Shown here: in pieces, positions 21,277-26,879 of the stretch | Position numbering within the stretch: the first letter of the stretch is position 1 | How the letters are laid out: each line of letters starts with the position of its first letter | Source of the DNA: Candidatus Binatia bacterium | GTDB lineage: Bacteria > Desulfobacterota > Binatia > UBA9968 | DNA length: 26,879 nucleotides | Direction of reading: 5' to 3' | NCBI GenBank assembly: GCA_041618055.1 | Contig: JBFJNS010000001.1 | Location: 1-26,879 of the forward strand | Program-made: the position numbers and the translations under genes | The notes under the pieces: generated by a model | The model's input: only the letters and a program-made list of their open reading frames with translations | Told to the model about the DNA's origin: nothing | Databases searched by the model: none

Positions 21277-22602
21277 TTATGGAACAATGCTAGCGCGCAC
21301 CCGATCTCTCACATCGATCCTCACGAGGCCTGAACTTCGATTCTCATTTGCTCTGTTGCTGCGAATGGAAAACGGAAGATACATATAACCGCTGCCATCC
21401 ATCAGTCCGTTTCCACTAGAGTTGCTACCCCTCAGAACCGAGCTCAAGTCACCCAGCTCTGTTTTCTTGCCCGATTGAATTTCGTACTCGTACAGGTGCA
21501 GGGCACCGTCTCCGCTGCTGGTCGTTCGGGGAATCGTGAAGAGCTTGCGTTCGTCTCTGGATAGAGTCAGATTGCCGAGCCGTCGTACGGTTTCACCACG
21601 GGCAACTCTTTCTTTGGTCAGGATTGACCCCAAATCTTCCAATTTTTCGGCACGGACATTAAAACGATACAATAAACCAATGGTGTTGGCTAAGTAAATC
21701 GTCTTTCCACCTGAGGCTACAGCCATGCCCACAAAGAACCCGTTCGAGAATCGGCTGTCTGTGGGAACAAGCCGGCCCGCCTTACGGTCAAGTTTGAACA
21801 GATAGTCGGGTGCGGCCCCGTAAGCGTATGCTGCAAAAACATCGCCTTGGTTTGTCGCGATCACCACGCGGCCGACGTTTGATCGCTGGTTTTCTGGCAG
21901 GCCGCGTCCATATTTGGTCGTTCTCCCCGTGTTCAAATCATGCAGTAAGACGTTGCCGTTGGGAAAAGTCCACCCCACCAGTTTGTCCTCTTCACGCAGG
22001 ATATTCATTGCGATGATCCCCTCATGGACTATCGAAATTCCGCGGGAATCATTTTTGCTCAGATCGTTAAACTTTCCCGTGGCAAGATCGTAAGAGATGA
22101 AATGCCCACCACGGTGTTTTTCTATATTTTCCAGTGAGTGGTGGTCATGTGTGGAAAAATACATCTTACCGTTGTGCTCAAAAATATCCGAATGAACTTT
22201 CGCAACTCCCTCTGCATGCGGCCAGTGCTCGTTAGGCCCTAGGTTCTTCTCTTCTCTGAGAATTTGGCGCACGGAATTCAAAAACCGCTTTTCCCCCGAT
22301 TTTGTGTCATACGAGAAGATTAGAACATCGCCTGGTAATCCAGACCTTTCCTTTCCATTGCCTATGGCCACGTAAACGATACCGTTATGGTCTATTCCCG
22401 TGCCATGCCAAAATTCACTCAGGGTTTCCCCGCGGGGGGTAACCTCAGAAAAGTCGATGATATCGACGTTTCGAGCCCGCCCCACGTCGACCATCCCCAT
22501 GGCCAGCAGCCACGACACCAGCAGAATCGACTCTAATGCGCAGCCGCGTTTCTTAGCGGAAAAATGTATCTTGAATAGGTCGCTTTTCATGCAAGTTTGC
22601 AC
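21277..22602 (-). CDS. Hypothetical secreted beta-propeller-like protein
   Basis: Long ORF with a hydrophobic N-terminal segment and repeated blade-like motifs (IFSYDTKSG, FISYDLATG, LYRFNVRAEK, LYEYEIQSG). True start probably downstream of 22602. Confidence 0.65.
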   Translation of the reverse strand: MQTCMKSDLFKIHFSAKKRGCALESILLVSWLLAMGMVDVGRARNVDIIDFSEVTPRGETLSEFWHGTGIDHNGIVYVAIGNGKERSGLPGDVLIFSYDTKSGEKRFLNSVRQILREEKNLGPNEHWPHAEGVAKVHSDIFEHNGKMYFSTHDHHSLENIEKHRGGHFISYDLATGKFNDLSKNDSRGISIVHEGIIAMNILREEDKLVGWTFPNGNVLLHDLNTGRTTKYGRGLPENQRSNVGRVVIATNQGDVFAAYAYGAAPDYLFKLDRKAGRLVPTDSRFSNGFFVGMAVASGGKTIYLANTIGLLYRFNVRAEKLEDLGSILTKERVARGETVRRLGNLTLSRDERKLFTIPRTTSSGDGALHLYEYEIQSGKKTELGDLSSVLRGSNSSGNGLMDGSGYMYLPFSIRSNRANENRSSGLVRIDVRDRVRASIVP

Positions 22603-22751: not shown

Positions 22752-23423
22752 CTAGCGCACCTTCCAAAGGTCCGGGGGCATTTTGATTCGCCTCTCCGCG
22801 GCCAACTTGGCTGCCCGCTCCGCGCCTGCGCGCGCATGTTCGAGTTGCCAGTTGCCGAGCTCTAATCCCAGACCATCGACCACCCGCACTCGGAAGTTGA
22901 AGTACGCGCAGACGTGCACAATGTCGAGGATATCGCGGTCGGTCCACCCTGCGTCTCTCAGCTTTTGGATATCCGCCTCCGTCATGGCGCTGGGAGTCAA
23001 GGTCAATTTCTCGGCATACTCCAGCATCGCGTATTCCGCTGCTGTCAGCTTCATCTCCCGCCAATCGGATTTTACCTGCTCTACCGCTAGATCGTCGCCG
23101 CCTTCTTGACGCAGAAACTCTGCGTGGGCGACCGTTCAGAACCGACAGTTGAGGGTGGCGGACGTCACCGTAGCGATCATTTCGCGCTGGGCCGTCGTCA
23201 GGCGCGACTCGCCGCGCATGATCTCCCACATCAGCTCCGCCGTATGCCACATCGCCTTGGGATTAAGACTGTGCAACATCGGCGGACTCACCGGCGGACC
23301 TCCCGCTTCCTTGTTGCGCTCCTGAACGAGCTTTTCTCCTTTGCGCTGCTCGCCGAGCTTTCTGTAAACCTCTTTCAATTCGCCTTCGGCTTCATGCTCG
23401 GGGATAACTTTAATCCACGGCAC
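22752..23423 (-). CDS. AhpD-like / peroxidase-related (CMD superfamily) selenoprotein, 223 aa, Sec96 encoded by TGA 23138-23136
   Basis: ORFs 23136..23423 and 22752..23054 are in one frame. Read-through gives REMIATVTSATLNCRF-U-TVAHAEFLR...YAEKLTLTP...DILDIVHVCAYFNFRVRVVDGLG, so the AhpD CxxCxxxH motif has TGA at the second Cys. GTG start with AGGAGG RBS, true stop TAG, SECIS-like hairpin downstream. Confidence 0.85.
23097..23135 (-). promoter_or_regulatory. SECIS-like hairpin 3' of the UGA in the AhpD-like gene
   Basis: ACGCAGA-GUU-UCUGCGU (23125-23109) starts 10 nt after the UGA, loop G at +18. Lower stem GUCGCC/GGCGGC. Confidence 0.7.
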
Positions 23424-23587
23424 TTTGATCTCCTCCTTTTTTTGTCATCGTTCCGGGACTCATCTCAAACCGCAGATCGATCCGGATCAAGGATCAGCGG
23501 ACGTTCATAAATCACATAATCACTTAATAGCAAGATATCTGCAAAGCATAGAGGCTCCGCCTCACTCTATTTCAGGATCATCAACAA

Positions 23588-23617
23588 TTGACATCACAGA
23601 ACCTTATCGGCTAGTCT
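23588..23617 (+). promoter_or_regulatory. Putative sigma70 promoter of the OsmC-like gene
   Basis: TTGACA (23588-23593), 18-bp spacer, TAGTCT (23612-23617). Confidence 0.45.
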
Positions 23618-23726
23618 TTTTTACAAACAGGGATGCAGGACCAGCTCAGTTTTTCAGTCGGCAGCATTGCGTTCTGAAGATTAGCCTTTCCCCGACCACG
23701 CCGTTGAACCTCTGAAAGGAGAAGCT

Positions 23727-24287
23727 ATGGAAGAGATCGTCAAAAAACTGGTTTCCCGGACAGCCAAACCTGGAGCGGGGGGGGTCCCCGGCAGCCTTCA
23801 GCCGCATCAGGACCGCGAACTGCGCGTGGCCATCGAGGCTGAAAGTCTGGACGGCATGAAAAAGCGAGCCGTCGTCACTCTTGAACAACCCGAAGGTAGC
23901 ACGTTTTCTATCATATGCGACGAAGGAGCCTATCTTGCAGGCGAGGATACCGCACCACCGCCCCTTGCCTACTTCAGCGCCGGCATCGCATTTTGAATGT
24001 TAACCCAACTGTCCCGGTTCGGGACAATCGCGAAGCTTAACGTTCAGTCAATCCGGCTCAAACAGGTCACACGGTTCTTCATGAAGGGTTCTGCTCTCCA
24101 AGGGACATTACGAGGCGGCGCCATCGGACTTGAGACGCAGATTGAAGTCGAGTCCAGCGAGCCAGCGGAGAAGATCCGCCACCTGATCAAAATGGGCGAG
24201 CAGACCTGCTTCACCCTTCAGTCGCTCGTCAATCCGGTCCCGGTCAAGACGTCGGTCGCACTGAACGGAGAGCCGCTGGTCCTATAG
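23727..24287 (+). CDS. OsmC/Ohr-like selenoprotein, 186 aa, Sec90 encoded by TGA 23994-23996
   Basis: ORFs 23727..23996 and 23997..24287 abut in frame: CDEGAYLAGEDTAPPPLAYFSAGIAF-U-MLTQL...MGEQTCFTLQSL. The TGA occupies the first conserved OsmC Cys (UxxT) and the second Cys (C161) is intact. AAGGAG RBS, true stop TAG. Confidence 0.85.
23997..24046 (+). promoter_or_regulatory. SECIS-like hairpin 3' of the UGA in the OsmC-like gene
   Basis: UGUCCCG-GUU-CGGGACA (24010-24026) starts 13 nt after the UGA, loop G at +21. Lower stem UGAAUGUUAA (23994-24003) / UUAACGUUCA (24037-24046). Confidence 0.72.
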
Positions 24288-24350: not shown

Positions 24351-25655
24351 TCAGCGAATCATGCTGTTCGGCAGGACCAGAGCTATTTGCGGGAATACAA
24401 CTAGAACCACGAGTCCCACGCCCATCGCAATCCAGAAGGGAAGGATACCCAGGAAGATGTCGCCCATGGAAACGTTTTCGGCGACTCCCTTGACGACGTA
24501 GACGTTTACTCCCACGGGAGGACTGATTAGCCCCATCTCGAGAACGATCACAACCAGCACGCCGAACCAAATCGGGTCGAACCCCAAGGCCAGAATCAAC
24601 GGGTGCACGATTGGAATCGTCAGTACCAGCATAGCGAAGCCCTCAAGGAACATTCCGAGCACGATGTAGATGAGCAAGATGGAAAACAGGACTGCGTAGG
24701 GCGACAGACCTAAATGGGTCAGGGCCTCGATTAAGTTGGCCGAGACGTGGGTCAGGGCAAGGAAGGGACTGAAGATAAAGGCCCCGATCAGGATGAGGAA
24801 GACAAGGGCGGTGGTGCGAACTGCTTGCAGTAAAATAGTCGAGAGCACATCCAGCGTAAACTTTCCCCGAAACAAGGTGAGCAGAAAGGCTAGACAAGCA
24901 CCGATGCCCGCAGCTTCCGTGGGTGTAAACAGGCCGGCGTAGATCCCGCCAATCGTAATAATCACGATACCGATCATGAAGCCTGCCTGCCGTGTCGCCC
25001 TCAGCTTATCGAGCCAATGGGTCGCCGGCCCCGCGGGACCGAGCTCGGGCTTGATGCGGGTCTGAATATAGATAGCCAGAATAAAAAGAGCGGTCAGGAG
25101 GAGCCCGGGCAACACGCCTGCCAGAAAAAGCCGGCCGATGGATTCTTGCGTTAAGATCGCGTAGATGACAAAGCCGGTGCTGGGCGGGATCAGAATACCC
25201 AGCGTCCCTCCAGCAGCTACACAACCGGTGGCGAGACGGGCATCATACTTGTAGCGGCGCATTTCCGGCAAGGCCACCTGGCCCATTGTCAGTGCGGAAG
25301 CAACGGATGATCCGGATAGCGCGGCGAAACCGGAACAGGCGGCGATCGTGGCCGAAGCGAGGCCACCGCGCCAGTGGCCAACCCAGGCGTAGGCGGCGGC
25401 GTATAGATCGCGGCTCATCCCCGAAACAGTGGCTAGATTTCCCATAAAGATAAAGAGGGGGATAACGATCAGCTCGTAGTTGGAGGAAACGACGAACGGC
25501 TCGGTGGCGAGGAGAGCAAGAGCCGCCGTCCAGCCGTTGGCGAAGCCGAAGCCAACGAAGCCGACCAGTAGCATGGCGATGCCGACCGGCATGCGGAGCG
25601 CGAGAAGGAAAAGAAGCCCCGCAAAACCGGCGATGCCGAGGGCCGTCGGTGTCAT
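24351..25655 (-). CDS. dctM: TRAP transporter large permease
   Basis: IPLFIFMGNL, SGSSVASA, GGTLGILIPPS, FTPTEAA, DPIWFGV, GLISPPVGVNVYV. Confidence 0.95.
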   Translation of the reverse strand: MTPTALGIAGFAGLLFLLALRMPVGIAMLLVGFVGFGFANGWTAALALLATEPFVVSSNYELIVIPLFIFMGNLATVSGMSRDLYAAAYAWVGHWRGGLASATIAACSGFAALSGSSVASALTMGQVALPEMRRYKYDARLATGCVAAGGTLGILIPPSTGFVIYAILTQESIGRLFLAGVLPGLLLTALFILAIYIQTRIKPELGPAGPATHWLDKLRATRQAGFMIGIVIITIGGIYAGLFTPTEAAGIGACLAFLLTLFRGKFTLDVLSTILLQAVRTTALVFLILIGAFIFSPFLALTHVSANLIEALTHLGLSPYAVLFSILLIYIVLGMFLEGFAMLVLTIPIVHPLILALGFDPIWFGVLVVIVLEMGLISPPVGVNVYVVKGVAENVSMGDIFLGILPFWIAMGVGLVVLVVFPQIALVLPNSMIR

Positions 25656-26161
25656 GGGTGTTTTGCCCCCGGCCGGGGGCGAGAGGCTCGGAGCGCTTGC
25701 ACAAAAAGAACCAGGGCGTAGAGCCCAGCGCCTATCGCAATGATGAAGAAGAACGGCGACCGCGGTATTTCAATGAGGTTTGAGGCCTCCCCGTAACGAT
25801 ACGCATCGAGGCCGCGCCTCCAGGTTTGCCAGGCGATATAAGAGAACAAAAGACCGGAAACCGTGTGCACGACGCGATCCGACCACAGCAGTGTGCGAGG
25901 CTTCAATCTGGAGGCGACCACGTCGAGTGCGACGTGCCCCCCGGTCCAGCCGCAGTAGGCCAGGGCGGGGAAAACGACGACGATCAAGCTGACTTCGGAT
26001 AAATCCTGCCCTCCTAGAATAGGCGCGTTGAAAACATAGCGCATGATCACGGCGACGACGGTAAGACCCATCAACCAGAAGAGAGCGATTCCGCTGATGT
26101 AAGCGCATAAGCGAACCGCGCTGCTGACAATCCTATCGAGCCGGTCAGGGCGCTTGTCCAC
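25652..26161 (-). CDS. dctQ: TRAP transporter small permease
   Basis: Four TM segments, V.MRYVFNAPI.G..DLSE, GGHVALD. Between dctP and dctM. Confidence 0.92.
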   Translation of the reverse strand: MDKRPDRLDRIVSSAVRLCAYISGIALFWLMGLTVVAVIMRYVFNAPILGGQDLSEVSLIVVVFPALAYCGWTGGHVALDVVASRLKPRTLLWSDRVVHTVSGLLFSYIAWQTWRRGLDAYRYGEASNLIEIPRSPFFFIIAIGAGLYALVLFVQALRASRPRPGAKHP

Positions 26162-26168
26162 GGCCCTC

Positions 26169-26879
26169 TCAGTTGGCGGCGCCCATTGCAGCCAGTATGG
26201 CTCTTGCCGGAACGCCTTCTTTTTCGAAGTTCGCCACGATCTTATCCCTCGCTTTGATCAGTAGCGAGTTCCCCTTTTTCACCTCGTCGGGCGATAGCAC
26301 AATCACCTCGTGCTTCGCGCTCTTGCGAACGCCATCGAGATCCTCCGCGCCCTCCCTTTCGTAGACTCTGGCACCCATAAGGCTCAGTTCACGACCGGTA
26401 GTCTTGTCGATGACGGCCTTGTGTGGACTCGACAGGCTCTCGTAGGCTCTTTTGTTCATCGCGAGAAAAAAAGGCGACCGCCCAAAGACAAGCCCAATCG
26501 TATAGTATTTGGCCACCTCCCCGATTTTGAACGATGTAATGACGGTGGGAGGAACCATAAGGGCATCCACGACGCCGGTGCTAAGGGCACGGTACATCTC
26601 GCTGGCCGGTAGGGATACGGGGGTAGCGCCTAAGGCTGCAATCAGGTCGGCTTGATCCTTCGACGGCACGCGCATCTTCATGCCCTTAATGTCCTCGACC
26701 TTGCGGATTGGCTTATCTTTCGTCATCAGGATGGGCCCGTCATTTCCCCAAACAGCAAGGACTTTTACCCGCTCGTATTCGGTGGCTAGGTACTTGTCGA
26801 ATATATCCCAGAGCTTGTTGGTTGCCTCGATAGCGTCCGATGCAACTCCAGGGAGTTCGATCATTGTCGTTCTGGGGAA
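26169..26879 (-). CDS. dctP: TRAP transporter substrate-binding protein (5' part outside the window)
   Basis: Frame is open to the window edge (FPRTTMIELPG...). KPIRKVEDIKGMKMRVP retains the carboxylate-binding Arg; EMYRALSTGVVD. Confidence 0.92.
   Translation of the reverse strand, partial: FPRTTMIELPGVASDAIEATNKLWDIFDKYLATEYERVKVLAVWGNDGPILMTKDKPIRKVEDIKGMKMRVPSKDQADLIAALGATPVSLPASEMYRALSTGVVDALMVPPTVITSFKIGEVAKYYTIGLVFGRSPFFLAMNKRAYESLSSPHKAVIDKTTGRELSLMGARVYEREGAEDLDGVRKSAKHEVIVLSPDEVKKGNSLLIKARDKIVANFEKEGVPARAILAAMGAAN

Follow-up and report, generated by a model that had tools for sequence, protein, structure and literature searches.

Positions 23727-24287 of the window, by which we mean the whole stretch of 26,879 nucleotides that was analysed, very probably hold one OsmC-related selenoprotein gene, in which an in-frame UGA is read as selenocysteine (Sec) by means of a hairpin lying 3' of it. 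We infer that Sec is inserted at residue 90 in a SelB-dependent manner, and consider this highly probable. The original prediction had placed Sec at the position of the normally peroxidatic Cys, and this is supported by the Cys found at that column in homologs, by 42 relatives with TGA at the same site and by a hairpin that accompanies the Sec forms and is absent from the Cys forms. The family is already known, NCBI curating the model NF041052 for it, and the gene is one of its ordinary members. Its features are as follows.

23716-23721, + strand: Shine-Dalgarno sequence AAGGAG, 5 nt 5' of the ATG at 23727, read directly from the sequence
23727-24287, + strand: OsmC-related selenoprotein gene, a single gene of 186 residues when translated with TGA as U; stop codon TAG at 24285-24287
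23916-23918, + strand: TGC codon of C64, a third Cys, in the CDEG motif (IICDEG)
23994-23996, + strand: in-frame UGA for the predicted selenocysteine U90, with which the UxxT motif (U-M-L-T) begins
24010-24026, + strand: SECIS-like hairpin found by folding, with a 7-bp stem (24010-24016 paired with 24020-24026) and the loop GUU (24017-24019), encoding L-S-R-F-G
24207-24209, + strand: TGC codon of C161 (EQTCF), the conserved second (resolving-type) Cys

Family membership is clear for the joined protein, which scores 172.4 bits against NCBIfam NF041052, "OsmC-related (seleno)protein" (cut-off 95), with residues 34-181 matching profile positions 2-144 of 144, and 35.9 bits against Pfam OsmC (PF02566; gathering threshold 27.5). 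A search over 5.8 billion proteins yielded 65 homologs. When the full-length Cys-form homologs were aligned with the query, the U90 column was Cys in 29 of 29, as was the column of C161, and T93 was invariant, giving a CxxT/UxxT motif; in seven full-length homologs a true TGC or TGT at the U90 column was verified in the DNA. The alignment proposed earlier as a check on the Sec assignment thus bears it out, the U column being an invariant Cys in these homologs and aligning with the first conserved Cys of solved OsmC-family proteins. C64 is conserved in at least 90% of the subfamily, some members having Ser, Thr or Ala instead (Ser in the homolog L024, Thr in PDB 3cje), and D65, E66 and K46 are invariant across the subfamily alignment. 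The original prediction had also described an N-terminal extension of about 45 residues. The N-terminus is indeed longer, but it is no peculiarity of this gene: the NF041052 domain begins at residue 34, and residues 1-33 are common to the homologs of about 190 residues and typical of the subfamily. The Pfam OsmC match begins at residue 72, and the strands modeled at residues 34-65 are part of the fold.

Structural comparisons lead to the same family. A profile built from the homologs finds the OsmC-like protein 3cje (Jann_2040 from Jannaschia sp. CCS1) at E = 8e-23 as the closest known structure by this measure, and the columns of U90 and C161 align with both of its Cys; 3cje differs from the protein described here in having Cys instead of Sec and Thr at the position of C64. 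The same two columns align with the Cys of the "...GAC..." and "CPV" motifs in 9wo1, an OsmC. An AlphaFold2 model built with 30 sequences (pLDDT 90.3, pTM 0.82) has the OsmC/Ohr fold, and its best Foldseek match is 2opl (GSU2788 from Geobacter sulfurreducens; E = 2e-9, TM 0.67-0.69), followed by 3cje (E = 7e-9, TM 0.53-0.64). Among the best 50 PDB matches listed, almost all bear the name OsmC or Ohr, and one is an unnamed structural-genomics entry. The model predicts the features expected of an OsmC fold, namely an N-terminal beta-sheet, a long helix alpha-1 with the first Cys column and a kinked helix alpha-2 with the second: U90 is placed within the helix 79-101 (alpha-1), and the kink of alpha-2, where helix 147-160 gives way to helix 162-168, holds C161.

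What such a protein may do can be sketched by analogy. The hairpin at 24010-24026 would recruit SelB with Sec-tRNA(Sec), so that the UGA at 23994-23996 is read as Sec and not as a stop. Sec90 would then replace the first conserved Cys of the fold, which is carried by helix alpha-1 and is peroxidatic in the characterised OsmC and Ohr enzymes, the second Cys being the resolving one (PMC8945050). The selenolate of Sec90 could attack a hydroperoxide or another oxidised substrate and become a selenenic acid, which C161 on the kinked helix alpha-2 might resolve to give an intramolecular selenenylsulfide, and this in turn may be reduced by a dithiol donor such as a lipoyl protein or an AhpD-like or Trx-like protein. 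We lean slightly towards peroxidase-type chemistry of this kind, which is taken over from the OsmC/Ohr paradigm. The preference is no stronger because the published assignment of the OsmC-like selenoprotein family is to COG1765/YhfA (PMC1088965; PMC9312934), a branch of the superfamily whose members retain both Cys but are reportedly without the catalytic Arg and Glu that Ohr/OsmC proteins have, and whose biochemistry is uncharacterised (PMC8945050).

The same assignment supports the one alternative that deserves serious weight, although we consider it the less probable: that Sec is inserted into a putative YhfA-type (COG1765) redox protein that is not a peroxidase, perhaps a selenosulfide/disulfide oxidoreductase or a protein that detoxifies another electrophile. 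This would be in keeping with the fact that the best structural matches, 2opl and 3cje, are structural-genomics entries. It also agrees with the low identity (12-19%) to characterised OsmC and Ohr enzymes. E. coli OsmC (1qwi/1nye) and Ohr (1n2f, 1zb9, 6ebg), which are lipoyl-dependent organic hydroperoxide reductases, nevertheless share the fold and the two-Cys arrangement with this protein, which differs from them in having Sec at the peroxidatic Cys and a longer N-terminal region. The match in fold and in two-Cys geometry speaks for a peroxidase, as does the observation that replacements of Cys by Sec are typically located at redox-active catalytic residues (motif tables in PMC1088965).

The reading of the gene as a single frame, on which both kinds of chemistry depend, is far more secure. 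The open reading frame 23727-23996 closes with the TGA, and the ATG at 23997-23999 follows in the same frame with zero gap and remains open to the TAG at 24285-24287. The TTT TGA ATG TTA junction therefore joins the two frames without interruption, as had been noticed in the original prediction, and with TGA read as U the product is ...APPPLAYFSAGIAF-U90-MLTQ..., of 186 residues. Translation likewise places GIAF-U-MLTQ, C64 in IICDEG and C161 in EQTCF where they had been reported. One might instead see two separate small genes here, the first stopping at the TGA at 23994 and the second starting independently at the ATG directly 3' of it. Gene callers do split the gene at UGA-ATG, as was anticipated, and the closest database relatives are present only as half-length "hypothetical proteins" (P0011, P0012, P0013, P0020, P0046 and P0048). 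An independent start at 23997 driven by its own ribosome-binding site had been named as one observation that would overturn the single-gene reading. The sequence 5' of this ATG, however, contains no Shine-Dalgarno or other purine-rich ribosome-binding site, and the codon after the TGA in the first 32 distinct Sec forms is CTG in 21, CTC in 2, CTA in 2, CTT in 1 and ATG in 6, so that 26 of the 32 carry a Leu codon that is no usual start codon. The ATG at 23997 is thus a Met/Leu column of the motif rather than a conserved start. Nor does either half reach the Pfam cut-off alone (the second scores 20.1 bits against PF02566, and the first has no OsmC match), whereas the joined protein passes; each Cys-form homolog is one continuous protein of about 190 residues, and the fold needs both halves. 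Taken with these observations, a pair of independent genes is very improbable.

A single gene could still have been inactivated, as TGC or TGT becomes TGA by one base change, and the failure to see selA, selB and selD in the organism's own assembly would suit a pseudogene. The distribution of the TGA argues strongly against this. When 40 genomes of the same order were searched in six frames, every one of them had homologs, nearly every match having exactly one in-frame TGA, the column of which was inspected in the closer homologs; one match in the genome G029 has two. The TGA stands at the identical column, in the context F-U-[M/L][L/M]-T, in all 42 distinct sequences inspected, whose identity to the query ranges from 91% down to about 35% and which come from genomes under several phylum labels. 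The second copy in the same genome (on contig C362) has the TGA too, no further stops are present, the downstream half is conserved as protein, and a hairpin specific to Sec forms accompanies the TGA. A single conserved TGA column, with protein conservation on both sides of it, excludes a recent nonsense mutation, and we give the pseudogene reading very little credence.

The 40 genomes contain up to six OsmC-like homologs each, and up to about five homologs per genome bear a TGA; distant paralogs at 23-30% identity are among the matches with a single in-frame TGA. The second OsmC-like selenoprotein gene of the genome studied here (G000:C362:2281-2832; L039) is 87% identical and has the same TGA and hairpin. 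The TGA-bearing relatives include metagenome-assembled genomes (MAGs) labelled Binatia, Deltaproteobacteria, Syntrophobacteraceae, Methylomirabilota, Acidobacteria, Blastocatellia, Actinomycetota and Thermomicrobiales. Among the orthologs L061-L069, those in MAGs with the first six of these labels are 82-90% identical, and those labelled Actinomycetota and Thermomicrobiales are 64-70% identical. This spread over phylum labels suggests either that the selenoprotein gene has been transferred horizontally or that there are errors in binning or labelling.

The hairpin itself provides a further line of evidence for Sec insertion. It starts 16 nt after the U of the UGA and occupies nt 17-33 relative to that U. 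This geometry may resemble that of the E. coli fdhF element, in which an upper stem-loop lies about 11 nt past the UGA and has GU in its apical loop. The hairpin was found in every Sec form, with GUU, GUA or GUC as the loop and GU at positions 24-25 throughout, and is absent from the seven verified TGC/TGT forms, none of which makes the pair 21-29. The mean minimum free energy over nt 11-42 is -9.9 kcal/mol in the Sec forms, compared with -4.8 in those seven Cys forms. Across the 42-sequence alignment, 94.9% of the hairpin cells are paired and compensatory changes occur in three of the seven pairs: pair 18-32 changes from U-A to G-C or C-G, pair 19-31 from U-G or U-A to G-C, and pair 21-29 from C-G to G-C. 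The covariation score is 0.214, compared with 0.083 for column shuffles (0 of 500 reach 0.214) and with at most 0.066 for slid controls; these figures come from mutually related sequences in which three of the seven pairs covary, and hairpin conservation is partly confounded with conservation of the codons for S-R-F/Y-G. No Rfam family matched the window at its gathering threshold, the hairpin included, so that a curated model for it is either absent or present without firing.

The comparison with the Cys forms also indicates what the hairpin costs the protein. It codes for S-R-F/Y-G in the Sec forms, while the nearest Cys forms have S-R-F/Y-A; in these the Gly codon GGG is gone and the stem is disrupted as a result. 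The protein sequence is therefore under constraint from the RNA element, and the Sec versus Cys comparison offers a clean case of a bacterial SECIS shaping its own product.

The genome has part of the machinery needed to read UGA in this manner. A tRNA-Sec gene (G000:C183:2876-2966, - strand) scores 76.7 bits against RF01852 (cut-off 47), and ARAGORN calls the same locus tRNA-SeC with the anticodon TCA. Searches of the organism's own assembly for selA, selB and selD (PF03841, PF09107, TIGR00474, TIGR00475 and TIGR00476) gave nothing above cut-off, the sub-threshold matches being paralog-like. With its 544 contigs, this assembly reaches a completeness of 66%, and the relatives possess the genes: among five relatives checked, three of which have an ortholog 88-91% identical, selA and selD pass the cut-off in five of five and selB in four of five, G009 having a partial selB match. 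For these two reasons we treat the absence of the three genes from this MAG as an assembly gap and not as real loss, and count it as weak counter-evidence. The genes lie adjacent in the relatives (G003:C119:12064-16660, with equivalents in G012, G028 and G036), where selD carries one in-frame TGA and is probably itself a selenoprotein SelD. Genome-wide reassignment of TGA to Trp or Gly (codes 4 and 25), with a residue other than Sec at position 90, might be suspected from the homolog P0003, whose database sequence shows W where its DNA has TGA, but this is the least probable reading of all and was rejected on stop-codon usage, TGA being the commonest stop of 1,310 long ORFs in the genome (TGA 539, TAG 387, TAA 384); the presence of tRNA-Sec, and of exactly one TGA in nearly all homologs, at the Cys column where inspected, also stand against it.

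The family to which this gene belongs has been known for some time. In 2005 a study of the Sargasso Sea metagenome described an OsmC-like selenoprotein family with the UxxT motif and drew its SECIS (Zhang, Fomenko and Gladyshev; PMC1088965), and the family has been relisted since (PMC9312934; PMC13188914). The present gene agrees with the NF041052/UxxT family in its U-M-L-T motif, its Sec/Cys column, its second Cys and its post-UGA SECIS with G in the apical loop. It differs in coming from a MAG lineage of soil or groundwater type (Binatia, and genomes labelled "Deltaproteobacteria") instead of marine metagenomes, and in standing head-to-head with an AhpD-like gene that has a CxxU motif; substantive differences there are none. 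With family, motif and SECIS in print since 2005 and an NCBI model in place, no new biological question is opened here. The main value lies in annotation, where joining half-length calls, or correcting calls made with TGA as W, restores a complete predicted redox enzyme.

The neighbourhood of the gene comprises the following features.

21277-22602, - strand: ORF of 441 aa adjoining the AhpD-like gene, with no Pfam match at E <= 0.001
22752-23423, - strand: split gene for an AhpD-like/CMD "peroxidase-related enzyme" (TIGR01926, 128 bits, cut-off 81.8), divergent from the OsmC-like gene
24351-26864, - strand: TRAP transporter genes DctP, DctQ and DctM, downstream of the OsmC-like gene
Upstream: Ldh_2, AMP-binding and Oxidored_FMN genes

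None of the neighbouring genes suggests a specific substrate for the OsmC-like protein. The AhpD-like gene has an in-frame TGA at 23136-23138, giving C-R-F-U96, and CxxU is a published motif for AhpD-like selenoproteins (PMC13188914); 13 nt past the U of this UGA, a 7-bp hairpin with the loop GUU begins. It is tempting to see in the head-to-head pair (22752-24287) an all-selenium peroxidase/reductase couple, and in the Sec-OsmC paralogs of the lineage an unusual dependence on selenium for peroxide defence. The AhpD-dependent regeneration of OsmC in Corynebacterium glutamicum, as cited in PMC8945050, may be offered as a parallel. We nevertheless consider this idea improbable. A search of about 58 loci of relatives (tblastn of the AhpD-like protein P0002, 0.5-3 kb flanks) found no AhpD-like gene beside the OsmC-like gene, and a conserved two-gene module was rejected as a general feature, the pairing being present only at the window's own locus. 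Five of the relatives' loci (L013, L014, L062, L063 and L064) have a second OsmC-like homolog nearby instead, some of them in tandem, and in L014 and L062 this second copy has the TGA at the same column.
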